In this document: positions 3,398 to 64,000 of the stretch, one piece after another
Numbering within the stretch: the first letter of the stretch is position 1
How the letters are laid out: each line of letters begins with the position of its first letter
Source of the DNA: Escherichia coli
GTDB taxonomy: Bacteria; Pseudomonadota; Gammaproteobacteria; Enterobacterales; Enterobacteriaceae
DNA: 64,000 nt
NCBI RefSeq assembly: GCF_030384885.1
Contig: NZ_CP128613.1
Direction: 5' to 3' (one strand)
The notes under the pieces: generated by a model
Seen by the model: only the letters and a program-made list of their open reading frames with translations
Told to the model about the DNA's origin: nothing
Database searches by the model: none
Position numbers and translations under genes: made by a program

Positions 3398-4632
3398 TGA
3401 TAAGACAACGGGTAGCGGTTGGTTAGTTGTATTACTTTTTGCTCAATATCGGCGCAAATGCCTGCGATATCTGACGAGTTGATGGCGAAAATGATTTCAC
3501 TTATCCAGTCAGCAATAAGCACAAAATCATCCGCCTTCATCCCACGCGTGGTGCAGGCCGCGCTGCCAATACGGACCCCGGAGGTAATCGACGGCGGCTG
3601 CGGATCGCCCGGCAGGGTGTTTTTATTGACCGTGATCCCCGCCAGTTCGAGAAAGTACTCCACCTGTGCGCCGGTTAACCCCTGCGGGCGCAGGTCGATA
3701 ATCCCCAGATGGCAGTCGGTGCCGCCCGTTAACAGCGTCAGACCGCGCTGCGCCAGTTGCTGGCACATCGCCTGCGCATTGTCGATAACCTACCCGGCGT
3801 AACGTTTAAATTCTGGTTGTAATGCCTCGCCAAGCGCCACCGCTTTCGCCGCGATAACGTGCATCAACGGCCCGCCCTGCAAACCGGGAAAGATGGCGCT
3901 GTCGATTTTTTTCGCAAGCCTGGCGTCATTGGTGAGGATCATGCCGCCGCGCGGCCCGCGCAACGTTTTATGCGTGGTGGTGGTGACCACATCAGCATAC
4001 GCCAGCGGCGAAGGAAAACAGCCGCCCGCCACCAGCCCGGCAAAGTGCGCCATATCCACCAGCAAAATGGCATCAACGGCATCGGCAATGCGGCGAAAAC
4101 GGGCAAAATCATAGTGGCGTGGATAAGCCGATCCTCCGGCAATAATTAACCGTGGGCGCTCGCGTAGCGCGATCATCTCGACCTCATCCATATCAATCAG
4201 GCCACTATGGGCATCGACGCCATAGTGAAAGGCGTTAAACCATTTGCCGGATTGATTGACCGGAGAACCGTGCGTGAGATGCCCGCCGCATTGCAGGCTC
4301 ATGCCAAGAATTTTGTCGCCGGGCTTCAGCAACGCCAGATAGACCGCCTGATTCGCCTGGCTGCCGGAGTGAGGCTGCACATTGACGTAACGCGCGCCAA
4401 AGAGCTGCTGCGCGCGGGTTATCGCCAGCATCTCAACCTCATCAATAAACTTACAGCCGCCGTAATAGCGATGCTGGTAATAACCTTCGGCGTATTTATT
4501 GGTTAACACCGACCCCTGCGCCGCGAGAACGGCGGGGCTTACGAAATTCTCCGAGGCAATCAGTTCCAGCGACTGCTGCTGGCGCTGTTGCTCCTGGTTA
4601 ATCAATGCAAAAAGTGGATCGTTATTTATCAT
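3394..4632 (-). pseudogene. serine hydroxymethyltransferase (GlyA-like) paralog interrupted by an in-frame TAG at 3790-3792
   Basis: ORFs 3790..4698 and 3394..3768 are in the same frame; both halves align to SHMT ([17 protein letters not shown]-lysine motif; GITVNKN); the stop sits where GlyA has a Gln in the YQQQV region. Confidence 0.65.
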
Positions 4633-4864
4633 GCGCTTCCCCCGCAAATTCATCATGCGATGATTTTCGCAGGGAAAACCTCGTCCGCACCCTGCCACTT
4701 TTTAGACTGAGCGCAGACCACCTATGTCGTTTTACTTAAAAGAAGAGGGAAGAAGGCTCCAGGCATCTCCATATGCGATTCTGGTTGGTAATACATCATA
4801 TTCCAGCTGCTCTTATCCGCCTACGTTATTGCATATACGGATAAGGCAGCCTCAATACGTACTT

Positions 4865-6430
4865 TTACTTGATATCTTTCACGCGCATACCGTTGATCTG
4901 TTCATCCGTGATGGTATTACCCGCTTTAAAGTAATCAACCACCGCGTGATAAACGTAATAACCGCCCGTCGTATTGCGCGCTTTACCCTCGGTAAACGCG
5001 GTAAAACCATCTCCACCATCAGCAAGGAAACTCTGAGTGGCAATGTGGTAAACCGTCGCATCTTCAATCGGTTCGCCATTCAGAGTCAGCGAGATAACCC
5101 GCTGACCAACCGGCTTGCTGCTGTCGTACTTCATTTCCAGGCCTTTCGATACCTGTAAAACGCCATTACTTAAACTTGCGCCGTGTTCCATCAAACTGCG
5201 TAATTGTTTACCCGTGAGTTCCATCGTCACCAGTTCGTTGGGGAACGGGAAGGTACTGATGACGCCACCCATCGTAATTGCACCCGCCGGGATCTCATTG
5301 CGGATACCGCCAGAGTTGGTTAACGCCAACTGGGTATTTTTACCCGCCGCTGCCAGCAAAGCGTCCGCCGCCAGATTCCCGAGAGAAGCCGATTCACCAT
5401 AGGCACGTTTCAATTCAACTGGCGATTGCGCCACCGTTTGCTGCACGACTTCATCCAGCTTTTTATTCCAACTATCAATCACCTGTTTTGTTTGCGGATC
5501 GGGCTTCCACTCGTCGGCGTAAAGGGTTTTAAGCTCGAAGTTTTTCACCGTAAAAGTGTGCGGCTTCTCTTTGTAGTCTAGAACCAGTTTACCCACATCA
5601 ATCCCGCCGCTGTCAGTGGAGAGGATTAACGTATTGCCGACTTTAATCGGTTCCGGCGTACCCACATGTGCATGCCCGGTGATCAAAATATCCAGCCCTT
5701 TCACCTGACTTGCCGTCTGAATATCTTTATCCAGTGCGCGGCGCACATCTGTGCCCCCCATACTGGACTGGCGGGCCGGAACACCTTCGTGAATCAGCGC
5801 AACGGTCAAATCAACCTTGCCTTTGAGTTCATCGATATAACGTTGTAGCCATTTAATTTCATCACGCGCCTCAATACCCACTCGCGTTGCCGCAGATACC
5901 GTATCATTAAAGGCAAATACACCGTGCAAACCAATCACGCCAATTTTCACGCCGTCTTTTTCAATGATGGTATAGGGCTTATCCCAGAATGATTTACTGC
6001 TGTTCTGATAAAAAACATTACCCTGCACAATCGGGAATTTTGCCTGACTCAACTGTAATAACGTATTGTCCCAGCCGTGATCAAATTCATGATTACCTAT
6101 AGTGGCCGCATCGAACGGCATGGTATTCATAATATCGATAATCGCCTTGCCTTTAGTCAGGCTGCTAATATACGGCCCGGTAAAATAGTCACCCGCATCA
6201 AAAAACCAGGTCGCTTTGTTTTTAGCTTTTTCTTGTTTAACAAGCGTAGTGATATTTGCCCAGCCGCCAATATCTCGTTTACCGTCAGCAATCCACGGCA
6301 CTTTATAAGGCTCTACATGTGCATGGAGGTCGTTGGTATAAATGATGGTGACATCTTTGGCGCAAGCCCAAAACGGCAGTGTTAATGCGATACCCGCAGC
6401 AAGCATTTTAATTTTCATAAACAATCCCAT
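4865..6430 (-). CDS. secreted bifunctional metallophosphatase / 5'-nucleotidase (UshA family), paralog 1
   Basis: 521-aa ORF; signal-peptide-like N-terminus; metallophosphatase motifs [23 protein letters not shown]; C-terminal 5'-nucleotidase domain. Confidence 0.8.
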
Positions 6431-12275: not shown

Positions 12276-14708
12276 CTACAACAACTGCGCCAGACGGTTA
12301 ATATCCGACTGAATCGCCCCGGCGGTGACGTCGCGCCCTGCGCCTGGCCCACGGATCACCAGCGGGTTGTCGCGATACCAGCGGCTTTCGATGGCAAAGA
12401 CGTTATCGCACGGTAGTAGTGATGCCAGCGGATGGTCTTCTCGCACCGCTTCCACGCCTACTCGCGCTTTGCCGTTAGCATCGAAACGCGCCACGTAGCG
12501 CAACACCAGCCCCATTTCACGGGCCGCTTCCAACCGTTGTACCATCTGCTCATTAAGTTCATCGCCATTTTCAAAGAAATGGTCGATGCTGCCACCTTCG
12601 CAATGGGTTGGCACCAGTGATTCAACACGCACCTGGTCCGGTTCAATGTTGTAACCCGCTTCACGCGCCAGAATCACCAGCTTGCGCATCACATCTTTGC
12701 CGGAGAGGTCATCACGCGGGTCAGGTTCAGTTAAGCCCTGCTGCCACGCCTGATCCACCAGCTCAGTAAACGGCACGCTACCGTCGAATTGCAGGAACAG
12801 CCAGGAGAGCGTGCCGGAGAAGATCCCGCTGATCGACAAAATAGTGTCGCCGCTGTCGATCAGATCGCGCACGGTATGGTTGATCGGCAAACCTGCGCCG
12901 ACGGTGGCGTTGTATAGCCAGTGACGCCCGGTTTTTTCGAACGCGTCGTGGATCTGTCGATATTTATTGCTGTCGCTGGCTCCCGCCAGTTTGTTGGCAC
13001 TGATGACGTGGAAACCGTGGCTGGCGAAATCGAGATACTGATCAGCAAGCTGCTGGCTGGCAGTAACGTCCAGCACCACTAAATCATCATACGGATGGGC
13101 ACGCATCCACAGGAACAGCGACTCTTCATCCTGTTCGACGGCTTCATCATTAAAGAAGGCTAGCGCACGGCTGGCGTCCAGCCCGTCATAGCTCAACAGG
13201 CTGCGACGGCTGTCCACCACGCCTGCCAGCACAAATTCAAAGCCGGTGCGCGCCGAGAGCGTGCTCTGCTCACGGGCGAACAGTTCCAGCCAGCGGGAAC
13301 CGATATTGCCCTTACCGAACAATACCAGGCCGATGCGTTTTTCTGCGCGGAAGACGGACTGATGCAGCCCCTGAATCAGGCTTTCGGTAGGTCCGGTACG
13401 CAGTACTGCCACCAGGCTGATGCCGTCATCGGACTGCCAGGTAAATTCGACCGGCTGGCCTTTCAGTTGCTGCCAGAAGCGGTGGCAATGCAGCGGGTTA
13501 CGGGTGACGCCTGCACCAACCATCGCCACCAGCGCCAGCCCCTGACGCAGGCGCAGTTCGCCAGGTAATCCTGCTTCGTCGAGGATTTTCAGCGCACTAT
13601 CGGCCACTTCCGAGGTGTAGCAAAATTGCAGCAACTGGCGATCGTTATGCACGCCAACCGCCAGTGGGCGCACCTGAGCACGTTTCAGGATTTGGTCGAT
13701 CTCTTTATGCGCCAGTTTGAAATCCTGACTGGCGGGCACCTGAAACTCAATCAAACAGACATCATCGTGGCTGGTGACAATACGCGCGCCAGTACCGGAA
13801 GCCAGCACGCGTTCAATGCGCGTGGAACCTTGATCCGGCGTGTAGCTACAGCGCAGCTGCAGGTCGATTTCACTGCCAGAAACTGGCTGTAAAGTACGGG
13901 CGTGAAGAACGGGGGCCGCCAGACGCGCCAGTTCACTGGCTTCATCAAGACGCAGCAATGGCAGCAGGCAGGCATCTTTCACTTTACGCGGGTCAGCGCT
14001 GTATACCCCGGCGACGTCGCTCCAGATGGTTACGCGGGAAACTCCCGCCAGCGCACCGATTTGTGTCGCGGAATAGTCGGAACCGTTACGCCCCAGCAGC
14101 ACCGTTTCACCGGCGTTGTTACGGCTGATAAACCCGGTCACCACCAGACGTTTGCCCGGATGTTGTACCAGTAGCTGTTGCAGCAACGGGTAAGAAAGCC
14201 CTTCATCAACCTGCGGCTGCGCGGCGCGTTCAGCGCGTAAAAACTCGCGGGCATCAAGCCAGGCCGCAGGCAATCCTTGTTGATTAAGTACCGCAGACAT
14301 CAGGCGCGCCGACCACACTTCACCGTGGCCCACCACTTCCGCATACACCGCATCGTTAATACCGCTGTCGAGCAGCGCCGCCAGGCGTTCCAGATCGCTG
14401 ACAAAAGCGCTAATGAGGCTATCGGCTTCTTCGGCGGGTAGCAGGCCGCTAATCAGATCGCACTGATAGCGACGCAGCGTTTGTTGAACCTGATGCGCAG
14501 AGAGACGATCGGTCTGGCTTAGTTTCAACCAGTTAATCAACTGGTTAGTGGTGCTACCGGCGGCGGAAACCACCATCATATCGTCAGGCTGAGAGTACTC
14601 CGCCATAATGCCCGCGACACGCAAATAACACTTCACATCAGCCAGACTACTGCCACCAAATTTATGCAGTTGACGACCTTTCGCCCCTGCCTGCGCAATC
14701 ACACTCAT
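12276..14708 (-). CDS. metL: bifunctional aspartokinase II / homoserine dehydrogenase II
   Basis: 810-aa ORF recognised as MetL; immediately downstream of metB as in the metBL operon. Confidence 0.95.
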   Translation of the reverse strand: MSVIAQAGAKGRQLHKFGGSSLADVKCYLRVAGIMAEYSQPDDMMVVSAAGSTTNQLINWLKLSQTDRLSAHQVQQTLRRYQCDLISGLLPAEEADSLISAFVSDLERLAALLDSGINDAVYAEVVGHGEVWSARLMSAVLNQQGLPAAWLDAREFLRAERAAQPQVDEGLSYPLLQQLLVQHPGKRLVVTGFISRNNAGETVLLGRNGSDYSATQIGALAGVSRVTIWSDVAGVYSADPRKVKDACLLPLLRLDEASELARLAAPVLHARTLQPVSGSEIDLQLRCSYTPDQGSTRIERVLASGTGARIVTSHDDVCLIEFQVPASQDFKLAHKEIDQILKRAQVRPLAVGVHNDRQLLQFCYTSEVADSALKILDEAGLPGELRLRQGLALVAMVGAGVTRNPLHCHRFWQQLKGQPVEFTWQSDDGISLVAVLRTGPTESLIQGLHQSVFRAEKRIGLVLFGKGNIGSRWLELFAREQSTLSARTGFEFVLAGVVDSRRSLLSYDGLDASRALAFFNDEAVEQDEESLFLWMRAHPYDDLVVLDVTASQQLADQYLDFASHGFHVISANKLAGASDSNKYRQIHDAFEKTGRHWLYNATVGAGLPINHTVRDLIDSGDTILSISGIFSGTLSWLFLQFDGSVPFTELVDQAWQQGLTEPDPRDDLSGKDVMRKLVILAREAGYNIEPDQVRVESLVPTHCEGGSIDHFFENGDELNEQMVQRLEAAREMGLVLRYVARFDANGKARVGVEAVREDHPLASLLPCDNVFAIESRWYRDNPLVIRGPGAGRDVTAGAIQSDINRLAQLL

Positions 14709-14710
14709 TT

Positions 14711-15871
14711 TTACCCCTTGTTTGCAGCCCGGAAGCCATTTTCCAGGTCGGCAATTAAATCTTCGCCATCTTCAATACCGGTGGAGATACGCAGCAGCGT
14801 CTCGGAGATCCCGGCGGCAGCACGCGCTTCTGGTGCCATGCCTGCATGTGTCATGGTTGCGGCGTGAGAGATTAAACTTTCCACTCCCCCTAATGATTCC
14901 GCCAGCGTAAACAACGACAACCCGCCCAGGAAACGACGCAGCGTCTGCTCATCGCCATCCAGTTCAAAACTCAACATTGCGCCAAAGCCTTTTTGCTGGC
15001 GCGCGGCAATTTCATGCCCCTGATTTTCCGGCAGCGACGGGTGATACAGTTTTTTCACTAACGGCTGGGTTTGCAGATATTTCACTATCGCCTGCGCGTT
15101 GCGCTGCGCCAGCTCCATACGCGGCACCAGCGTTCGCAAACCGCGCAGCAACAAATAACTGTCAAACGCGCCGCCCGTCACGCCAATATTGTTTGCCCAC
15201 CAGGCCAGTTCGGTGACAACGTCCGGGTCTTTAGCAATCACCACGCCAGCCACTACATCTGAGTGACCGTTCAGATATTTCGTGCATGAATGCAACACCA
15301 GATCGGCACCTAATGCCAGTGGATTTTGTAATGCCGGGCTTAAGAAGGTGTTATCCACCACGCTCACCGCCCCGACTTCCCTTGCCAGATGGCAGATTTT
15401 CGCAATATCCACGACGCGTAACAATGGATTACTTGGGCTTTCTACCAGTACTAGTTTGGGTTTTTCTGCCAGTGCAGCCTGCAATGCCTGCTCATCTCCT
15501 TGATCAACAAACAGCACGCGATAACAGCCGCGTTTCGCCAGGCTGTCGAACAGGCGATAGCTGCCGCCGTAGCAGTCGTGCGGCGCAACCAGCAAATCGC
15601 CAGGTTTCAAAAAGACGGTCGTTACCAGGTGGATGGCAGACATGCCGGTATTAGTCAGCACTGCACCAGCACCGCCTTCCAGTTCAGCCAGCGCACGCTG
15701 AACCACATCGCGCGTTGGGTTGCCGCGACGCGAGTAATCATGCGCGCGCGGTTCATTAAATCCGGTAAAGTTATAGGTGCTGGAAAGATGGATGGGAGGG
15801 ACAACGCAACCATACTGTTCGTCGTCATTTAACCCGCTACGCACTGCAATGGTGGCCTGTTTACGCGTCAT
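14711..15871 (-). CDS. metB: cystathionine gamma-synthase
   Basis: recognised as MetB (MTRKQATIAVRSGLNDDEQYG...); the track ORF extends further upstream, start moved to the Met matching the 386-aa protein. Confidence 0.95.
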   Translation of the reverse strand: MTRKQATIAVRSGLNDDEQYGCVVPPIHLSSTYNFTGFNEPRAHDYSRRGNPTRDVVQRALAELEGGAGAVLTNTGMSAIHLVTTVFLKPGDLLVAPHDCYGGSYRLFDSLAKRGCYRVLFVDQGDEQALQAALAEKPKLVLVESPSNPLLRVVDIAKICHLAREVGAVSVVDNTFLSPALQNPLALGADLVLHSCTKYLNGHSDVVAGVVIAKDPDVVTELAWWANNIGVTGGAFDSYLLLRGLRTLVPRMELAQRNAQAIVKYLQTQPLVKKLYHPSLPENQGHEIAARQQKGFGAMLSFELDGDEQTLRRFLGGLSLFTLAESLGGVESLISHAATMTHAGMAPEARAAAGISETLLRISTGIEDGEDLIADLENGFRAANKG

Positions 15872-15926
15872 GTGATGAAGTTCCCTGGGCTTGGTCGGTG
15901 AAATGTCAGGCACCAGAGTAAACATT

Positions 15927-15966
15927 GTGTTAATGGACGTCAATACATCTGGACATCTAAACTTCT
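15927..15966. promoter_or_regulatory. tandem met boxes (MetJ operator) in the metJ / metBL divergent control region
   Basis: tandem 8-bp repeats GGACGTCA ATACATCT GGACATCT AAACTTCT, matching the AGACGTCT met-box consensus. Confidence 0.6.
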
Positions 15967-16147
15967 TTGCGTATAGATTGAGCAAATCCCAAATAGCCGT
16001 TAAAATTATATGCATTATCACGCCGACAGGTGCATTACACGATGTCACGGTAACGCCTGTACGGTAAACTATGCGGGTTTACGGTCAGTACCCACATAAA
16101 TTGTGTGGTCTGATCTCAATTTATTGACGAAGAGGATTAAGTATCTC

Positions 16148-16465
16148 ATGGCTGAATGGAGCGGCGAATATATCAGCCCATACGCTGAGCACGGCAAGAA
16201 GAGTGAACAAGTCAAAAAGATTACGGTTTCCATTCCTCTTAAGGTGTTAAAAATCCTCACCGATGAACGCACGCGTCGTCAGGTGAACAACCTGCGTCAC
16301 GCTACCAACAGCGAGCTGCTGTGCGAAGCGTTTCTGCATGCCTTTACCGGGCAACCTCTGCCGGATGATGCCGACCTGCGTAAAGAGCGCAGCGACGAAA
16401 TCCCGGAAGCGGCAAAAGAGATCATGCGTGAGATGGGGATTAACCCGGAAACGTGGGAATACTAA
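16148..16465 (+). CDS. metJ: methionine repressor MetJ
   Basis: recognised as MetJ ([35 protein letters not shown]...); start moved to the Met matching the 105-aa protein. Confidence 0.95.
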
Positions 16466-16524
16466 AGCGGAAAAGAGCGGCGCGGAGTTAACCAGCCGCT
16501 TTTTTCATACATGGACGTTTAACT

Positions 16525-17133
16525 ATGAAATACAGGCTACTGATCCTCAACCTGCTGGTTTCTGTGCCTGCCTTTGCCTGGCAGCCGCAAACTGGCGACA
16601 TCATCTTTCAAATCTCTCGCTCATCGCAAAGTAAAGCGATCCAACTGGCGACCCATTCCGATTACAGCCACACCGGTATGCTGGTGATGCGTAACAAAAA
16701 GCCCTACGTTTTTGAAGCGGTCGGCCCGGTGAAATACACCCCGCTCAAGCAGTGGATCGCCCATGGTGAAAAGGGTAAATACGTTGTTCGCCGCGTTGAA
16801 GGCGGACTGAGTGTTGAACAACAGCAAAAACTGGCGCAAACGGCAAAACGTTATCTCGGAAAACCGTACGATTTCAGCTTCTCATGGAGCGACGATCGCC
16901 AGTACTGTTCGGAAGTGGTGTGGAAGGTTTACCAGAATGCGCTGGGGATGCGCGTGGGTGAACAGCAAAAACTGAAAGAGTTCGATCTCAGCAACCCGCT
17001 GGTTCAGGCGAAGCTCAAAGAACGTTACGGGAAAAATATTCCGCTTGAGGAAACGGTGGTCTCGCCACAAGCCGTTTTCGATGCGCCACAACTCACCACA
17101 GTCGCCAAAGAATGGCCGCTGTTTTCGTGGTAA
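16525..17133 (+). CDS. yiiX: YiiX family protein (putative lipid-binding hydrolase)
   Basis: 202-aa ORF with signal peptide; recognised as YiiX; position next to metJ matches K-12. Confidence 0.85.
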   Translation: MKYRLLILNLLVSVPAFAWQPQTGDIIFQISRSSQSKAIQLATHSDYSHTGMLVMRNKKPYVFEAVGPVKYTPLKQWIAHGEKGKYVVRRVEGGLSVEQQQKLAQTAKRYLGKPYDFSFSWSDDRQYCSEVVWKVYQNALGMRVGEQQKLKEFDLSNPLVQAKLKERYGKNIPLEETVVSPQAVFDAPQLTTVAKEWPLFSW

Positions 17134-17136
17134 TGG

Positions 17137-17250
17137 ATGATGAAAAAAATAATTCCCGCCGTAGTCTGTTTGTTGCTTTGTAGTTGCACGACCTTTCCGC
17201 AAGCTGTCGCTCCGGCAGGGAAAGATTACGAAAGCCCGCTCCCAGCAAGG
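17137..17250 (+). other. lipoprotein-like ORF fragment running into the ISAs1 element
   Basis: ORF 17137..17514 begins MMKKIIPAVVCLLLCSCTT (signal peptide with lipobox-like LCSC) and then overlaps the 3' end of the transposase gene on the opposite strand. Confidence 0.25.
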
Positions 17251-18480
17251 ACTGACGCCAGATACTTTCTGTCCATGGCTGCTTTTCGCATCTTACGTCT
17301 TAACCCTGCCTTGAATACCTTATCATTCGTTAAAATATTAATAGCGATGTGCCGTATCCCTGAAAATAATTCTGCGGCGTTTCCTCTTCGTATTTTGCAG
17401 TCGTCTTCATTCATTACCACGTCCAGACGCCAGTGCAGCTTATTCTCCACGTGCCAGTGGTTTCGGATTGCTGTGGCGAACTTTTCTGCGGTTAAATCAG
17501 CAGAACTGATATAATATCTGACCGTCATTTCTGGCTCTTTCTTTTGTTCTGCTATTATTGACCGAAAGGAGAATGCCACGCATAATTTCTTCAGTCCTTT
17601 CCATTCAAACGTGAAATCAATAAGTTCATCACGGACATCGCAAACAATATGAAGACGGATTTCTTCTCTGCCGTGACTCTTTTCACTCATTGCGTAACTG
17701 TCATGCTCTGGATTATTTAATTCTTTCAGCGGAAATTTTTCCTCGAAGGCTTTATTTAGCCGCCCCTGGTTTCCTTTTACAGCGAATACATAATCACCGC
17801 CCTGTTTTTGTATCTTCTCTGCAATATCTTTCTGGCAACCCATCGCATCAGTTGTGATGATTTTTCCTTTAATATCCAGCATGTTAAGAAGTTCAGGGAT
17901 AGCTGTAATTTCATTGGATTTCTCATCCGTCCTGATCTGTCCGATGACCAGACTGTGCATTGTTGAGAATGCACTAATGACATGAATCGCTCCCCTGCGG
18001 CGACTCTTGTCATAAGAATGCCGGAGTGTTTTTCCATCAATTGCGATGACGTCTTTATCATCTGAAGTATGGCAATCTCGCATCCAGTTAATAAAGCACT
18101 CGTGAAATTTTGAAGGACTGATACAGGATACAACTCTGGCGATGGTATCGTGAACAGGAATACCATTTTCAAAATCACCATATTGTTTTAAAAAATCGCG
18201 ATGTGCTTCCCCAAAATCCTCTATATGTTCCCAGCCTTCTGCACCAGAAATAACGGCGCAAATAGTCAACAGTAGAATATCCGATAATTTATGTTCCACT
18301 TTCCAGGTTTGTCTGTAATCGGGGATAATAGAAATATGTTCCATCAATTTTTTAAGTTCCATTCTTTTCTCCTTAATTATGTAAGGAGTATTTGATCATG
18401 TATAAGCAATAAAAAAACAGCTTCAGGCAATGAGGAATATCTCAATTTTTAAACATAAAATGCGAATTGTTTAGTACAAA
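17140..18480 (-). mobile_element. ISAs1-family insertion sequence (H-repeat element); ends approximate
   Basis: single transposase ORF filling a segment of about 1.3 kb, typical of H-rpt elements; terminal repeats not determined. Confidence 0.6.
17226..18362 (-). CDS. ISAs1-family transposase (H-repeat-associated protein)
   Basis: 378-aa ORF recognised as the H-repeat (H-rpt) protein found in Rhs elements. Confidence 0.85.
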
Positions 18481-18489
18481 AAAGCAGCG

Positions 18490-19100
18490 TTAAGTGAGTA
18501 GGCCACCGGAACCTCCCCGACAGCCTCTCGCAGAACCGTACGTGAAACTCTCGCTTCATACGGCTCCCGTCAGGCAAACGCGCTTCCTGGTCCTGCTTTC
18601 CAGTGGGCAAACAACTCCGGCTTCTCTTTTGACAGCCTTTCCATTAGCTGACACGCCTTCGTCTTTCTATACCGCAGGGTTTTATATTTCTTTCTCGCCC
18701 ACGCAATCAGCGTCAGATTAATATATCTGCATACTTTCTTCATCGCTGATTTGTGGTATCTCGCGTAATAATTCAGCCACCCCAATATTATCGGATTCAG
18801 CCACTTCGCAATATCTTCGAGACTCATCTCCACCCTGCGTCTGATCCACAGTTTCCTGAGTTTTCCAATCATGCCTTCGGGTTTACTCATCTCACTGTAT
18901 CTCACATAGGATCAGATCTCGTCTGATCGTTCCCCCTGCGCTCACTACCATGGCTCTTTACCACAGCAGCCGGGGTTGTTTGGGACCGACTTCCGACAGC
19001 AGATCCCGGTGGGCCTGCCACCATCTCTTCACAAGCTTATGCTTATTACATGCAAAACGTCCCGTTTTGCATCTTTGTGCCTACGGCACACCGTGATCTT
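18490..19100 (-). mobile_element. 5'-truncated group II intron remnant (maturase C-terminus plus RNA domains V and VI)
   Basis: ORF 18570..18905 carries a maturase-like motif (WLNPIILGWLNYYARY); downstream on the same strand, about 18532-18566, is GAGCCGTATGAAGCGAGAGTTTCACGTACGGTTCTG, which folds as a domain-V-like hairpin. Confidence 0.6.
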
Positions 19101-19111
19101 TCCCTGTCGGC

Positions 19112-19320
19112 ATGTTGACCACTGACGAATGGGGTAGTTACGCTAGAGAGTTACCAAAGGAGAAGCATCTGACTGGTAAGATTTTTACTCAGCATATTGA
19201 GCGTAACAATCTGACCCTGAGAACCCGAATCAAACGTCTGGCCCGCAGAACCATCTGTTTCTCGCGTTCTGTAGAACTTCATGAAAAAGTCATCGGTGCT
19301 TTTATCGAAAATATATGTTC
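19112..19320 (+). pseudogene. IS1-family transposase (InsB-like) C-terminal fragment
   Basis: ORF 19112..19426 contains TDEWGSYARELPK...FTQHIERNNLTLRTRIKRLARRTICFSRSVELHEKVIG, similar to the C-terminal part of IS1 InsB; no N-terminal part. Confidence 0.6.
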
Positions 19321-19395
19321 TACTAATTGGAGTCATCACCCTTCTGATGAGCTTTCCTTGGATGATTACCAGACTGAATACATAGCCAAAGATTT

Positions 19396-19719
19396 TTACC
19401 TCATTCTGCTTTTTTTTCTCAAATGACATATATTATATTTTACATCATATTCATAGGCATATGACATTCCCCCGCCCCCCATTATGTCATTGTGGGTTGA
19501 TGTTGGGCTTTCATAAAAAAATACATCTTTTTTTGAACTAGCATTAATTATATTTACTTTATATATTAAAATATTTTCTCCATCTGGAAATATTTTAGCC
19601 ACACAATATAAAGCAGCCAAATCCGAATTACTTAAAAATATATTGTCATCACTCATAACTCCAGCCATTAAATGACTGGAGACTAAAGCAAGGAAATAAC
19701 AACATTGTATTGCCTTCAT
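19396..19719 (-). CDS. putative immunity protein for the adjacent Rhs C-terminal toxin
   Basis: about 107 aa from internal Met (MKAIQCCYFLALVSSHLMAGV...), hydrophobic signal-peptide-like N-terminus; start codon lies 1 nt after the toxin stop with an AAGGGAG RBS; very AT-rich. Confidence 0.5.
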   Translation of the reverse strand: MKAIQCCYFLALVSSHLMAGVMSDDNIFLSNSDLAALYCVAKIFPDGENILIYKVNIINASSKKDVFFYESPTSTHNDIMGGGGMSYAYEYDVKYNICHLRKKSRMR

Positions 19720-19720
19720 T

Positions 19721-20275
19721 TTAATTACTCCCTTGCCTGATAATTGTAACTCCATTCCCTTTAGCTTTGGGATTATATTTTAGATAGGTGTTATTTGGTG
19801 TTCCCAAGTAACTACTGTATTCTTTTTTTCCCATTCCATTCATATAAGAATTCGTTAAATCTTTGCTTGAAAAATTTAGACTATCATAAACATCATTTTC
19901 TTTTGTTACTTTATTTCCTTTATCGTCAGAGTAAAAACCGTGAGTGTGATAATCGCCTACTCTCTCTGAACCTTCAGGGCATTTTATATTTCGCAAGTCT
20001 ACACTATCATTATCATTTGAACTTATCGGATTCATGGGGAAATATTCACCTTGCTTCTTACATATTAGTCCACCATATTCTTTATTCTCGTTAATTGATT
20101 CTCCATTACACATTGCCAATGCAAATATTCCAATATCATCTATATTTTTTGATTTAAATTCATATAATCCTAATGGATCCATGCCATTCACCGGGCTCAG
20201 CGGATATGTATACAGGTTCCATCCCCCCTTCAGCCCAATCGGATCCTGAGTGATATACCGCCCCTGTAACCGTCC
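19721..20275 (-). CDS. Rhs C-terminal tip: end of Rhs core (DPxGL motif) plus variable toxin domain
   Basis: reading frame encodes ...[35 protein letters not shown] followed by about 145 aa of low-GC sequence with conserved Cys/His (GDYHTHG); DPxGL marks the core/toxin boundary in Rhs proteins; no in-frame ATG at the 5' end. Confidence 0.6.
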
Positions 20276-20664
20276 TCACCGGGAAACAGGTGCTCAAAAT
20301 ACAGGCTTCTGCCGCCGTTATCACTGAGTATCAGAGTGTTATCGCGCAGCTGCAAGCGGATATCCGCAGGCATTTTCCAGCCGGGGCCGAGGCTCCCCAC
20401 CGGCGCGGGCGTTTTTGTCCGGTAACTGCTGTAGGTGCGGGAGAGGATGAACGGCAGCGGGCCGGGCAGGGCAAGGTCGGTTTCGCCGGGAAGGACCTTC
20501 GCACCGAGCAGCGGATTGACCGGATGGCCGGACGTCACCCCGCCGGGGCACACCGAACAGGCCACGCCGGTGGGGGCACCAATACGTACCCCGGCAGAAC
20601 CCTGGACAATGGGGCCACCATACTGCGTCATGTCGCCCTGACGCGCCGCCGGTTTTCCGCTCAT
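20230..20664 (-). pseudogene. Rhs N-terminal (PAAR-like) fragment, out of frame with the C-terminal tip
   Basis: 144-aa ORF MSGKPAARQGDMTQYGGPIVQGSAGVRIGAPTGVACSVCPGG... matches the conserved N-terminus of E. coli Rhs proteins for about 125 residues, then terminates. Confidence 0.7.
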
Positions 20665-20786
20665 CGTAAAATCCTTTTAAAATAAATAAGAACCAGAAGC
20701 CTAGCGCCAGTCAACAACAGGAAATGATAATGAGTTAACACCCCGGAATGTTTCAGAATTTATAAAAGGCAAATTACAGGCACAAA

Positions 20787-20815
20787 AAAAGCGCCGTGCG
20801 GCGCTTTTTTCGGAA
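20787..20815 (-). terminator. rho-independent terminator downstream of rpmE
   Basis: hairpin AAAAAAAGCGCCGTGCGGCGCTTTTTT immediately after the rpmE stop. Confidence 0.65.
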
Positions 20816-20823
20816 ATCCGGTC

Positions 20824-21075
<252 letters not shown>

Positions 21076-21079
21076 CTAA

Positions 21080-23437
<2,358 letters not shown>

Positions 23438-23592
23438 TGCGCAAACGATGCGAGGCGGATCGAAAAATTCAATATTCATCACACTTTTCATGAAAATTCT
23501 GTAACCGTTTTCACGCGCTATCTGCTAAAAATGTTGCCGATGTGAAGTAAACATGGAAGTAGTACGCCTGCCGTGCCGGGCGAGGAGTGAGT

Positions 23593-24618
23593 GTGAAAGC
23601 GAAGAAGCAGGAAACTGCCGCGACCATGAAAGACGTTGCCCTGAAGGCAAAAGTCTCTACAGCGACCGTCTCCCGAGCATTAATGAATCCCGATAAAGTC
23701 TCCCAGGCCACCCGTAATCGGGTTGAAAAAGCGGCCCGGGAAGTAGGTTATTTGCCGCAGCCTATGGGGCGCAACGTCAAACGTAATGAATCCCGCACCA
23801 TTCTGGTGATTGTCCCGGATATCTGCGATCCCTTCTTTAGCGAAATTATTCGCGGTATCGAAGTTACGGCGGCAAATCACGGATATCTGGTGCTGATTGG
23901 CGACTGTGCGCATCAAAATCAGCAGGAAAAAACCTTTATCGATTTGATTATCACCAAGCAAATTGATGGCATGTTGCTGCTGGGTTCAAGGCTGCCGTTT
24001 GATGCCAGCATTGAGGAACAGCGTAATCTGCCGCCGATGGTGATGGCGAACGAATTTGCGCCGGAACTGGAGCTGCCTACAGTTCATATCGACAATCTGA
24101 CCGCCGCATTTGATGCAGTAAATTATTTATATGAGCAAGGTCATAAACGGATTGGCTGTATAGCCGGTCCCGAAGAGATGCCGCTGTGTCACTACCGCCT
24201 GCAAGGCTACGTTCAGGCGCTGCGTCGCTGCGGCATTATGGTTGATCCGCAATACATCGCCCGGGGCGACTTCTCCTTTGAAGCCGGAAGCAAAGCGATG
24301 CAACAGCTGCTTGCTCTTCCGCAACCGCCTACTGCTGTCTTCTGCCATAGCGATGTAATGGCGCTCGGCGCACTTTCTCAGGCAAAACGCCAGGGGCTGA
24401 AAGTCCCGGAAGACCTTTCCATAATCGGTTTTGATAACATCGACCTGACGCAATTTTGTGATCCGCCGCTGACAACCATCGCGCAGCCGCGTTACGAAAT
24501 CGGTCGGGAAGCTATGCTGTTATTGCTTGATCAAATGCAGGGGCAACACGTTGGCAGTGGCTCTCGTTTAATGGACTGCGAACTTATCATCCGGGGATCA
24601 ACGCGCGCGTTACCTTAA
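23593..24618 (+). CDS. cytR: LacI-family transcriptional repressor CytR
   Basis: recognised as CytR; probable GTG start giving 341 aa. Confidence 0.9.
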   Translation: MKAKKQETAATMKDVALKAKVSTATVSRALMNPDKVSQATRNRVEKAAREVGYLPQPMGRNVKRNESRTILVIVPDICDPFFSEIIRGIEVTAANHGYLVLIGDCAHQNQQEKTFIDLIITKQIDGMLLLGSRLPFDASIEEQRNLPPMVMANEFAPELELPTVHIDNLTAAFDAVNYLYEQGHKRIGCIAGPEEMPLCHYRLQGYVQALRRCGIMVDPQYIARGDFSFEAGSKAMQQLLALPQPPTAVFCHSDVMALGALSQAKRQGLKVPEDLSIIGFDNIDLTQFCDPPLTTIAQPRYEIGREAMLLLLDQMQGQHVGSGSRLMDCELIIRGSTRALP

Positions 24619-25686: not shown

Positions 25687-25749
25687 GCATTATGCCCCGT
25701 ACTTTTGTACGGGGTTTGTACTCTGTATTCGTAACCAAGGGGTCAGCTC

Positions 25750-26280
25750 GTGACAACTATAGTAAGCGTACGCCGTAACGGCCATGTGGTCATCGCTGGT
25801 GATGGTCAGGCCACGTTGGGCAATACCGTAATGAAAGGTAACGTGAAAAAGGTCCGCCGTCTGTACAACGACAAAGTCATCGCGGGCTTTGCGGGCGGTA
25901 CTGCGGATGCTTTTACGCTGTTCGAACTGTTTGAACGTAAACTGGAAATGCATCAGGGCCATCTGGTCAAAGCCGCCGTTGAGCTGGCAAAAGACTGGCG
26001 TACCGATCGCATGTTACGCAAACTTGAAGCACTGCTGGCAGTCGCGGATGAAACCGCTTCACTGATCATCACCGGTAACGGTGACGTGGTGCAGCCAGAA
26101 AACGATCTTATTGCTATCGGCTCCGGCGGCCCTTACGCCCAGGCTGCGGCGCGCGCGCTGTTAGAAAACACTGAACTAAGCGCCCGTGAAATTGCTGAAA
26201 AGGCGTTGGATATTGCAGGCGACATTTGCATCTATACCAACCATTTCCACACCATCGAAGAATTAAGCTACAAAGCGTAA
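25750..26280 (+). CDS. hslV: ATP-dependent protease subunit HslV
   Basis: 176-aa ORF recognised as HslV (N-terminal Thr after Met). Confidence 0.95.
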
Positions 26281-40382: not shown

Positions 40383-40481
40383 GCCATATGCGGCGCGAAC
40401 GCCTTACACGGCCTACAAAAGTTTGCAAATTCAATAAATTGCAGAATTCATGTAGGCCTGATAAGCGAAGCGCATCAGGCA
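40383..40481. repeat. REP/BIME element between sbp and pfkA
   Basis: GCCATATGCGGCGCGAACGCCTTACACGGCCTAC and TGTAGGCCTGATAAGCGAAGCGCATCAGGCA. Confidence 0.75.
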
Positions 40482-45459: not shown

Positions 45460-45544
<85 letters not shown>

Positions 45545-63273: not shown

Positions 63274-64000
63274 ATGCAGGTCAGCAGAAGGCAGTTCTTT
63301 AAGATCTGCGCTGGCGGTATGGCAGGCACCACGGCAGCGGCACTGGGTTTTGCACCCAGCGTAGCACTCGCGGAAACCCGGCAGTATAAACTGCTGCGCA
63401 CCCGCGAAACCCGTAATACCTGCACCTATTGTTCCGTAGGCTGTGGGCTGTTGATGTACAGCCTCGGTGACGGAGCAAAAAACGCCAAAGCATCTATCTT
63501 CCATATCGAAGGTGACCCGGATCACCCGGTCAACCGCGGTGCACTTTGTCCGAAAGGCGCTGGCCTGGTGGATTTCATCCACTCCGAAAGCCGTCTGAAG
63601 TTCCCGGAATACCGTGCCCCTGGTTCTGATAAATGGCAGCAAATCAGTTGGGAAGAAGCGTTTGATCGCATCGCCAAATTGATGAAAGAAGACCGCGATG
63701 CTAACTACATTGCGCAAAACGCCGAAGGCGTGACTGTTAACCGCTGGCTCTCCACCGGAATGCTGTGTGCTTCCGCGTCGAGTAACGAAACCGGCTATTT
63801 AACGCAAAAATTCTCCCGCGCGCTGGGTATGCTCGCGGTCGACAACCAGGCGCGTGTCTGACACGGACCAACGGTAGCAAGTCTTGCTCCAACATTTGGT
63901 CGCGGTGCGATGACCAACCACTGGGTCGACATCAAGAACGCCAACCTCGTCGTGGTGATGGGCGGTAACGCCGCTGAAGCTCACCCGGTCGGGTTCCGCT
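63274..64000 (+). CDS. fdoG: formate dehydrogenase-O major subunit (selenocysteine-containing), 5' part; continues past window end
   Basis: Tat signal (RRQFFK); track ORF stops at TGA 63859-63861 but the frame continues as HGPTVASLAPTFGRGAMTNHWVDIKN..., matching FdoG with Sec at codon 196. Confidence 0.9.

Follow-up and report, generated by a model that had tools for sequence, protein, structure and literature searches.

A deleted copy of the group II intron E.c.I9, nested in an ISAs1-family element that truncates IS1, in an Rhs remnant of Escherichia coli

The window analysed here is the whole stretch of 64,000 nucleotides, which is E. coli DNA with the gene order metL-metB-metJ-yiiX ... rpmE-priA. 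The initial annotation had called for comparison with a strain lacking the insertion, and an alignment with K-12 MG1655 placed the island junctions: homology ends at window position 17134 and restarts at 20770. The island between them is 3.6 kb long and takes the place of about 12 bp of K-12 intergenic DNA. K-12 has no island, and its yiiX and rpmE are spaced by only 60 bp. In the feature list below, comparator loci are called L001 (strain 2013C-4282), L002 and L004.

17135-20769, no strand assigned: Rhs-element remnant, the whole island between yiiX and rpmE (K-12 MG1655 alignment)
17216-19106, minus strand: ISAs1-family (H-repeat/ISEc1-like) insertion sequence (IS) with terminal inverted repeats at both ends
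17216-17230, plus strand: ISAs1 right inverted repeat, CAGGGAAAGATTACG
17226-18362, minus strand: ISAs1 transposase gene, intact, 378 aa (NCBIfam NF033564)
18493-19091, minus strand: group II intron E.c.I9 with an internal deletion, 599 of 1,887 nt left
18493-18568, minus strand: intron domains V and VI (Rfam RF00029)
18570-18872, minus strand: remnant of the intron-encoded protein, last ~100 codons, maturase/X only (TIGR04416, Pfam GIIM)
18876-18877, no strand assigned: junction of the 1,288-bp deletion (intron nt ~216-1503), with a 2-nt AA microhomology (L001 alignment)
18876-19091, minus strand: intron 5' segment, nt 1-216, the 5' part of domain I (RF01999 and L001 alignment)
19092-19106, minus strand: ISAs1 left inverted repeat, CAGGGAAAGATCACG, which doubles as the intron 5' exon
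19107-19340, plus strand: IS1 remnant, insB C-terminus and right inverted repeat, cut by the ISAs1 end
19396-19719, minus strand: Rhs downstream ORF dsORF-f3, 107 aa (WP_001612119.1, 'RHS element protein dsORF-f3', in L001 and L002)
19721-20191, minus strand: C-terminal tip of Rhs, orphaned and of DUF4329 type (the called gene, 130 aa, matches Pfam PF14220)
20230-20664, minus strand: Rhs core N-terminal fragment (NF041261 RHS_core, positions 1-139 of 1261, E=4.7e-85)
20264-20266, no strand assigned: junction of a 3,241-bp frameshifting deletion in the Rhs core gene, with a 3-nt microhomology (against L004)

The Rhs element is not full-length: the core is reduced to its N-terminal fragment, and the C-terminal tip and dsORF-f3 are kept. 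In L004, the 3' end of the RHS core gene aligns collinearly with the tip, and the position of dsORF-f3 suggests that it is the cognate immunity-type gene. The Rhs deletion junction had no match at 99% identity or more among complete genomes.

The ISAs1 element itself accounts for 1,292 bp, the intron remnant brings it to 1,891 bp, and its two inverted repeats are identical at 14 of 15 nt. The transposase matched the NF033564 model, 'ISAs1 family transposase', over its whole length (1-314 of 314; E=1.2e-124; 415.6 bits, cut-off 70), and Pfam DDE_Tnp_1_assoc and DDE_Tnp_1 are recorded for an identical gene. Its DNA is 100% identical to the gene of WP_106907682.1 in 2013C-4282, and an AAGGAG ribosome-binding site lies upstream. 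A promoter and terminator scan of 17100-19500 showed no excess, with 5 sites against 4.2 expected in shuffled sequence. The flanks of the element are unlike, being yiiX-side island DNA on one side and IS1 interior on the other, and comparison of ...GCTCCGG with TCGGCATG... revealed no repeat. This lack of a target-site duplication, which we attribute to the 5' part of IS1 having been lost beside the right end, is no argument against the ISAs1 family.

The element resembles the H-repeat (H-rpt)/ISEc1 group in its 378-aa ISAs1 transposase, its size of ~1.29 kb without the intron, its CAGGGAAAGAT... terminal repeats and its position at the distal end of an Rhs element. Unlike that group, it has no target duplication and carries an intron remnant. 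Compared with the annotated ISEc1 copy in L002, it is 95% identical, and its left end differs at positions 14-27.

IS1 homology begins at 19107, directly outside the ISAs1 left repeat, and corresponds to about nt 531-764 of a 764-bp IS1H-like element. L002 has a whole IS1, whose 3' part shares 99.4% identity with the piece, and the plus-strand ORF at 19112-19426 aligned with positions 155-199 of 199 in the IS1 transposase model NF033558 (E=1.7e-15). The InsA and InsB genes and the pair of inverted repeats are incomplete; this is a fragment only, and it is inert. Profile and Rfam matches thus confirmed that the three mobile-element types read by the initial annotation next to or within the Rhs remnant are all real, including the intact-looking 378-aa ISAs1/H-repeat transposase, which belongs to that family and to no other IS family, and the IS1 InsB-like C-terminal fragment on the opposite strand.

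The third element is a group II intron located inside ISAs1, 15 bp from its left end, between the left inverted repeat and the transposase gene. The canonical 5' end GUGYG is present as GUGUG at 19091-19087 (minus strand), right after the ISAs1 exon ...GAUCACG. Rfam RF01999 (group-II-D1D4-2) matched 18905-19022 on the minus strand with 93.1 bits (gathering 36), and RF00029 matched domains V and VI with 62.8 bits (gathering 40). These domains contain the AGC triad, the 2-nt bulge, a GAGA loop and a bulged branch-point A in CCUACUC; they fold at -36 kcal/mol (z = -3.4), and the hairpin GAGCCGUAUG...CGUACGGUUC is domain V. The longest maturase ORF begins with GTG at 18905 and encodes 111 aa (18570-18905, minus strand). 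It matched Pfam GIIM and only the last 65 positions of TIGR04416 (group II RT/maturase; 289-353 of 353, E=8.6e-11), and neither TIGR04416 nor Pfam detected an RT domain in it. Exact-protein look-ups gave no match for the 111-aa and 106-aa versions of this ORF, and the 100-aa version matched in a public draft assembly, GCA_025467095.1. The earlier description of an intron with a domain V hairpin and a maturase C-terminus but no RT therefore holds, and the Rfam search suggested as its check did find domains V and VI; the view that only a 3' end remains does not hold, since GUGUG and 216 nt of domain I are present.

The exact intron boundaries rest on uninterrupted ISAs1 left ends, GATCACG/TAACG, for which exact 60-nt matches exist. 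At 99% identity or more, G-type empty sites were found in 179 records versus 45 for the T type. We rejected an alternative boundary, GGUGUG...CUCAC, derived from the T-type empty site in EC42405, because G-type sites are exact and commoner. It was also disfavoured by the 13-nt site GATCACG/TTAACG, which has no exact full-length match, and by the pairing of the predicted EBS1 with AUCACG. EC42405 has the only intron-less ISAs1 found at the yiiX-rpmE locus, with T and not G at exon position -1, and is therefore an imperfect empty-site control. From the G-type empty site and the Rfam alignment, the intron 3' end would read ...CUCACU, compared with the usual ...AY. Exon positions -6 to -1 are complementary to CGUGAU, which in the full-length copy (nt 266-271) lies in the loop of a predicted hairpin. 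We propose AUCACG, the last 6 nt of the ISAs1 left repeat, as IBS1, with CGUGAU as its putative EBS1 partner, a call made by complementarity search and a local fold whose z-score is unremarkable (-1.1). For EBS2 and EBS3, complementarity alone yielded no convincing assignment.

Comparison with strain 2013C-4282 showed what the intron has lost. This strain is near-isogenic with the window (1 SNP in ~10 kb), with 100% identity over 13400-18877 and 18876-20266. At the same site, between 100% identical flanks, it carries a full 1,887-nt intron, that is, 1,288 bp more than the window, including an intact 440-aa ltrA. This copy occupies L001 5094-6980 on the minus strand. In the LtrA protein of this full-length ortholog, RVT_1 spans residues 92-312 and GIIM 339-410. 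The deletion has taken domains II, III and IVa, RT codons 1-339 and the remainder of domain I, where the predicted EBS1 lies. Complete domains I-IV with exon-binding sites are absent from the window copy, as is a domain IV protein with both RT and maturase (X) domains. Because nt ~216-1503, with the predicted EBS1, are deleted, the window copy is a remnant and not a functional member, and it would no longer be able to splice or move. The Rfam matches to domains V/VI and to D1-D4 are identical for the dead and the live copy, so that only the full-length comparison reveals the deletion. The intron deletion junction occurred in none of 5,426 complete genomes. The deletion allele was found in one public draft assembly, the GCA_025467095.1 mentioned above, which has the same 8.3 kb with both the intron and the Rhs core deletion.

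By sequence, the intron is E.c.I9, a bacterial class D intron that bears this name in the Zimmerly database and has already been published. Leclercq and Cordaux (2012; PMC3522654) reported that E.c.I9 targets Rhs-associated IS specifically; they gave this name to sequences with at least 90% nucleotide identity to its copies, listed 'E.c.I9' fragments of 193 bp in Sakai and 159 bp in BL21 (Tables S2/S3), and listed ATCC 8739 with a full-length E.c.I9. We found that nt 1-193 of the window intron are 99.5% identical to the Sakai Rhs-region fragment and that its 3' 381 nt are 94.2% identical to the ATCC 8739 copy, both above the naming threshold. A 160-nt fragment in BL21, at 242512-242671, agrees with the published E.c.I9 coordinates and length. 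The window intron shares with E.c.I9 its sequence, the Rhs-associated ISAs1/ISEc1-type target, the Rhs-region context and, in the full-length copy, an intron protein with RT and X domains and no endonuclease domain. It differs in lying at the yiiX-rpmE Rhs locus, outside the Rhs regions listed in PMC3522654. Furthermore, the published remnants (193 bp and 159 bp) keep the 5' end only, whereas the window copy keeps both ends and has lost 1,288 bp inside.

Pieces of E.c.I9 are common, occurring in 2,565 of 5,426 complete E. coli genomes (47%). These are 5' fragments, and the 3' part was found in only 87 genomes (1.6%). In O157:H7, BL21, strain 100181 and at a second locus of 2013C-4282, an ISAs1 transposase gene is immediately preceded by the intron or a fragment of it, and three of the four loci also have an Rhs core upstream of the intron. 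Of the further loci examined, three with the intron just before an ISAs1 transposase gene lie at two other chromosomal sites. The second 2013C-4282 copy encodes an identical LtrA protein. Here and at four other loci, the homing site in the Rhs-associated IS is the same, 15 bp inside the ISAs1 left end. The suggestion that a group II intron remnant is less usual in this context was thus not borne out, given the published homing of E.c.I9 into Rhs IS (PMC3522654) and its presence in 47% of genomes.

The other E. coli group II intron that homes into Rhs IS, E.c.I2, uses a different position in the IS (Dai and Zimmerly 2002, as cited in PMC3522654); its host is UMN026 (NC_011751). The two are alike in class (D), in having an H-repeat/Rhs IS as host element and in their life inside mobile DNA, and differ in sequence and in target position. 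The ~71%-identical matches that contain ltrA may be E.c.I2 or another relative. In Sinorhizobium, remnants of RmInt1 are reportedly fragmented group II introns. Their likeness to the present case lies in inactivated copies that persist inside IS elements; the intron class and the host are different.

Together, these results make it highly probable that the locus is a nested Rhs remnant, with E.c.I9 inside ISAs1 and ISAs1 inside IS1, in which the intron was killed by the 1,288-bp internal deletion. The coordinates, the nesting, both deletions, the identity of the intron and its recurring target site are established by the data; for the insertions and the truncation of IS1, we infer the following order. 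An IS1 would have been present downstream of the Rhs toxin and immunity genes, and an ISAs1-family 'H-repeat' element would have inserted into it; a later loss, reaching the ISAs1 right end, would have removed the 5' part of IS1 (~530 bp) together with 5 bp of flanking DNA. The order of ISAs1 insertion and IS1 truncation is read from three comparator strains only. E.c.I9 would then have retrohomed to its specific target between ...GAUCACG and UAACGC..., 15 bp in from the ISAs1 left end, in the same direction as the transposase gene and the upstream Rhs genes. In this lineage, the intron then lost nt ~216-1503 in a deletion between 2-nt microhomologies, and the separate 3,241-bp deletion inactivated the Rhs core gene.

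A rival reading has three independent remnants side by side in a hot spot that was hit repeatedly, with the intron piece a 3' end that lost its 5' part through incomplete insertion or a deletion from outside. In its favour are the presence of three element types within 2.3 kb, the truncated IS1 and an ISAs1 that lacks a target-site duplication. We consider this reading very unlikely. The intron still has its 5' end and 216 nt of domain I, it lies between the ISAs1 inverted repeats, and at other chromosomal loci it is found at the same position in ISAs1. The full-length ortholog in 2013C-4282 and the positions of the inverted repeats already refute it: the intron is nested in ISAs1, and ISAs1 truncates IS1. 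Of the earlier proposal, successive insertions and deletions stand and a single hot-spot target does not, because the recurrence of the intron at the same position in ISAs1 copies elsewhere indicates homing to the element and not a hot spot at the locus. We also give very little credence to the idea that both deletions are draft-assembly artefacts and that the true locus is as in 2013C-4282. Both deleted segments are in repeated DNA, the complete genomes contain neither junction (the Rhs one at 99% identity or more), and the sole other record is a draft assembly. However, the junctions share just 2-3 nt of microhomology. Overlap and de Bruijn assemblers need spanning reads for joins on such short microhomology, and repeat collapse normally breaks contigs and does not produce a precise internal deletion. 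Moreover, the 151-kb contig is continuous through the whole island.

Compared with a dead remnant, a functional derivative appears extremely unlikely, whether a non-autonomous mini-intron that full-length E.c.I9 mobilizes in trans, or a 5' RNA or maturase-only gene with a function for the host or the IS, such as a block to re-invasion. A GIIM ORF of 100-111 aa is still open, both intron ends and domains V and VI are kept, and any insertion at the homing site destroys the target. The excess of 5' fragments over the 3' part points in the same direction. However, catalysis and target recognition depend on parts that the deletion has taken away: the predicted EBS1, domains II and III and half of domain I. 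No further locus and none of the complete genomes contained this deletion junction, so that there is no sign of spread, and the widespread 5' fragments represent a few old orthologous events. The maturase ORF may also lack translation signals of its own. Retention for a function (immunity to re-invasion, a 5' RNA or a maturase-only product), be it of the remnant itself or of the 5' pieces of E.c.I9 that precede ISAs1 transposase genes in nearly half of the genomes, is likewise improbable in our view, with only a slight chance of being correct. The asymmetry itself (2,565 versus 87 genomes) is only partly explained by the present evidence.

The biology found here is already known: the locus is an ordinary E. 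coli Rhs remnant with E.c.I9 at its usual homing site. Its importance lies mainly in correct annotation, and the lesson for annotation pipelines is that Rfam matches alone miss a dead intron copy. Published work pictures group II introns of E. coli as residents of other mobile elements that soon become inactive. The locus illustrates this clearly, and the near-isogenic pair, which differs by clean deletions in the intron and in the Rhs toxin gene, shows this decay in progress.

The elements lie in a locus flanked by metL, metB, metJ and yiiX on one side and by rpmE and priA on the other, as seen from the ORFs. The window matched essentially all of 5,426 complete E. coli genomes by megablast. 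In K-12 MG1655 yiiX and rpmE are 60 bp apart, and homology of the window to this strain ends at 17134 and restarts at 20770, indicating that 17135-20769 is an island. NCBIfam matches and comparator annotations identify it as a Rhs-element remnant, which contains the N-terminus of an RHS core, a C-terminal tip, the Rhs downstream ORF dsORF-f3, IS1, ISAs1 and a group II intron. The adjacent yiiX (16496-17134) is 94.7% identical to K-12, compared with 98.4-99.5% for the DNA on both sides, which suggests a diverged allele in linkage with the island. An ORF on the plus strand (17137-17514) begins in the 81 bp of island DNA beside yiiX (17135-17215), continues into the ISAs1 end and has a signal-peptide/lipobox-like N-terminus (MMKKIIPAVVCLLLCSC...); it looks like a truncated gene from the far end of the Rhs element. 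The same 81 bp also stand ahead of a whole IS1 in strain ETEC6335. The other gathering-level Rfam matches in the window (63856-63914, 45464-45541, 25695-25752, 21043-21095 and 40418-40459) are all ordinary in E. coli: SECIS_3, naRNA4 (REP-type), the ClpQY promoter, the L31 leader upstream of rpmE and the ES036 sRNA.

We found the following mobile-element features in the island.

17226-18362, minus strand: ISAs1 transposase ORF, 378 aa, with a full-length match to the ISAs1 transposase model (E=1.2e-124)
18493-18568, minus strand: group II intron domains V/VI, Rfam at gathering threshold, 62.8 bits
18905-19022, minus strand: domain I segment, group-II-D1D4-2, Rfam at gathering threshold, 93.1 bits
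19112-19426, plus strand: IS1 ORF, with a match to the final 45 positions of the IS1 transposase model

These matches agree with an initial annotation that had described an intact-looking transposase, an IS1 C-terminal fragment and a maturase C-terminus ORF, and had proposed an Infernal/Rfam check for domains V/VI. Of the group II RT/maturase model, the ORF between the two Rfam matches covers only the C-terminal maturase portion, and it carries Pfam GIIM. The annotation had also reported an intron 3' end. That end is present, but the domain I match had been overlooked and the piece comprises more than a 3' end. Similarly, debris does lie beside the Rhs remnant, but what had been called a graveyard consists of nested elements. 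The arms 17212-17230 and 19092-19110 form the best inverted repeat within 17100-19450 and enclose the intron, and the repeat core CAGGGAAAGAT(T/C)ACG also terminates the ISEc1 copy of ETEC6335. Therefore, ISAs1 spans 17216-19106 with the intron inside, and measures 1,292 bp without it. IS1 homology (19107-19340) begins immediately beyond the left end of ISAs1 and stops at the IS1 right repeat, and the ISAs1 right end adjoins island DNA 17135-17215. In ETEC6335 the equivalent island DNA is followed by TAAAC and then by the IS1 left end. We infer that ISAs1 inserted into IS1 and that the IS1 5' part (~530 bp) was later lost through a deletion ending at the ISAs1 terminus, which would account for the lack of an ISAs1 target duplication.

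The near-isogenic strain 2013C-4282 is identical to window 13400-23895 save one SNP and two extra segments. The first, of 1,288 bp, lies within the intron and includes most of an intact 440-aa ltrA, the intron-encoded RT/maturase gene (RVT_1 92-312, GIIM 339-410, without an endonuclease domain); the second, of 3,241 bp, lies within the RHS core gene. The intron piece is thus internally deleted, not 5'-truncated as the earlier reading implied. Relative to the full-length 1,887-nt copy, nt ~216-1503 are missing. The lost stretch contains the 3' part of domain I, in which the predicted exon-binding site EBS1 lies, the rest of the sequence before the ORF, which starts at nt 488 (by position, domains II, III and IVa), and the first 339 codons of ltrA. 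Nucleotides 1-216 and 1503-1887 (maturase tail, domain V and domain VI) are kept. Catalysis by group II introns needs the exon-binding sites of domain I and domain III, and mobility needs the RT. With the predicted EBS1, domain III (by position) and the RT domain missing, the remnant should be able neither to splice nor to move. The Rfam matches are identical for the dead and the intact copy, and the deletion is revealed only through comparison with the latter.

The intron deletion junction was found in none of the 5,426 complete E. coli genomes. An exact-protein look-up of the 100-aa remnant ORF led to NCBI assembly GCA_025467095.1, in which a 151-kb contig is 100% identical to window 14570-22872, both deletions included; the window probably derives from this assembly or from a sibling. 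Microhomology at both window junctions is only 2-3 nt; assemblers would not invent a join at such a length, and both deletions are therefore treated as real. The Rhs deletion (junction 20264-20266) is frameshifting and leaves a 139-aa N-terminal stub (20230-20664) and an orphaned DUF4329-type tip (19721-20191) with dsORF-f3. Just 1.4 kb separates the two deletions, whose junctions are of the same short-microhomology type. ETEC6335 has a whole 764-bp IS1 beside yiiX and ISEc1 elsewhere, in the Rhs core, an island type found in 24 complete genomes. Only 13 bp separate the end of this ISEc1 (L002, the ETEC6335 locus, 4497-5784) from the endpoint of the Rhs deletion (window 20266-20279), a proximity that may reflect chance or a fragile spot.

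Across the two intron boundaries the minus strand reads ...CAGGGAAAGATCACG GTGTGCCG ... GGCCTACTCACT TAACGCTGC... As the initial annotation had proposed, we compared strains lacking the insertion. In EC42405 ISAs1 and the IS1 fragment are the same, but there is no intron, and the site reads GATCAC-T-TAACG. The boundary implied by this T-type site would force a non-canonical GGUGUG start and was rejected, G-type sites being commoner. Uninterrupted GATCACG-TAACG left ends occur as exact 60-mers in complete genomes, with 179 records at at least 99% identity compared with 45 for the T variant, and a 13-nt version of the empty site had no exact match across complete genomes. In addition, CGUGAU at nt 266-271 of the full-length copy, in a predicted hairpin loop, is the complement of AUCACG (exon positions -6 to -1) and is the putative EBS1. 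The intron is therefore placed at 19091 to 18493 (minus strand), a length of 599 nt compared with 1,887 nt for the full copy; it then starts with GUGUG, ends in ...CCUACUCACU and has a bulged A 7 nt from its end, consistent with the Rfam alignment. In the intron-less ISAs1 of EC42405 at the same locus (L003 5095-5100, equivalent to window 19092), exon position -1 is T instead of G. Because this would mismatch the predicted EBS1, it may be a homing-resistant target variant.

Sequence matches identify the intron as E.c.I9, a class D intron 'in a Rhs region' (PMC3522654 Table S2). E.c.I2 and E.c.I9 specifically target Rhs IS (ISEc1-5), at differing positions (Leclercq & Cordaux, PMC3522654), and the window intron shares both target and setting with the published E.c.I9. 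Of the latter, ATCC 8739 carries a full-length copy, O157:H7, among others, a fragment of 193 bp, and BL21/REL606 one of 159 bp (PMC3522654 Table S2). The full-length 2013C-4282 copy matches O157:H7 genomes over nt 1-194 (in Sakai exactly 193 nt, 99.5% identity) and BL21 over nt 1-160, where the match is at 242512-242671 and the published position is 242507-242665 (PMC3522654); in the complete ATCC 8739 copy, identity over the 3' part is 94%. All elements here fit known families and a published intron-target relationship.

At four further loci, E.c.I9 or a fragment of it immediately precedes an ISAs1 transposase gene and shares its orientation. These are the ydcC locus of O157:H7, the yafV locus of BL21, one locus in strain 100181 and a second one in 2013C-4282. 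At three of the four it lies downstream of a Rhs core, and the LtrA proteins encoded by the two 2013C-4282 copies have one and the same accession. The intron 5' part has 0-2 mismatches in 210-230 nt between loci (window 18876-19106 vs L006, L007 and L008, at other chromosomal sites), whereas the adjacent ISAs1 bodies differ by 3-5%, a disparity in divergence which suggests that the intron homed recently, and separately each time, into IS copies that were old and had diverged. Full-length E.c.I9 is present in 83 of the 5,426 genomes and any piece in 2,565, with the 3' 384 nt in only 87. The 5' 160-194 nt are carried by 2,565 of the 5,426 (e.g. L006 3501-3694, L007 3501-3660). Among the matches listed, partial copies keep the 5' end, apart from the window copy, which keeps both ends, and two 3'-only pieces (H175, H176). 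Counted by genome, much of the 5'-fragment abundance is vertical inheritance of two old fragments. A group II intron had been thought less usual here, yet the presence of E.c.I9 at this published Rhs-IS target is the norm. Together, its recurrence upstream of ISAs1 transposase genes and the genome counts indicate that the Rhs/ISAs1 setting is the rule for E.c.I9, and no oddity.
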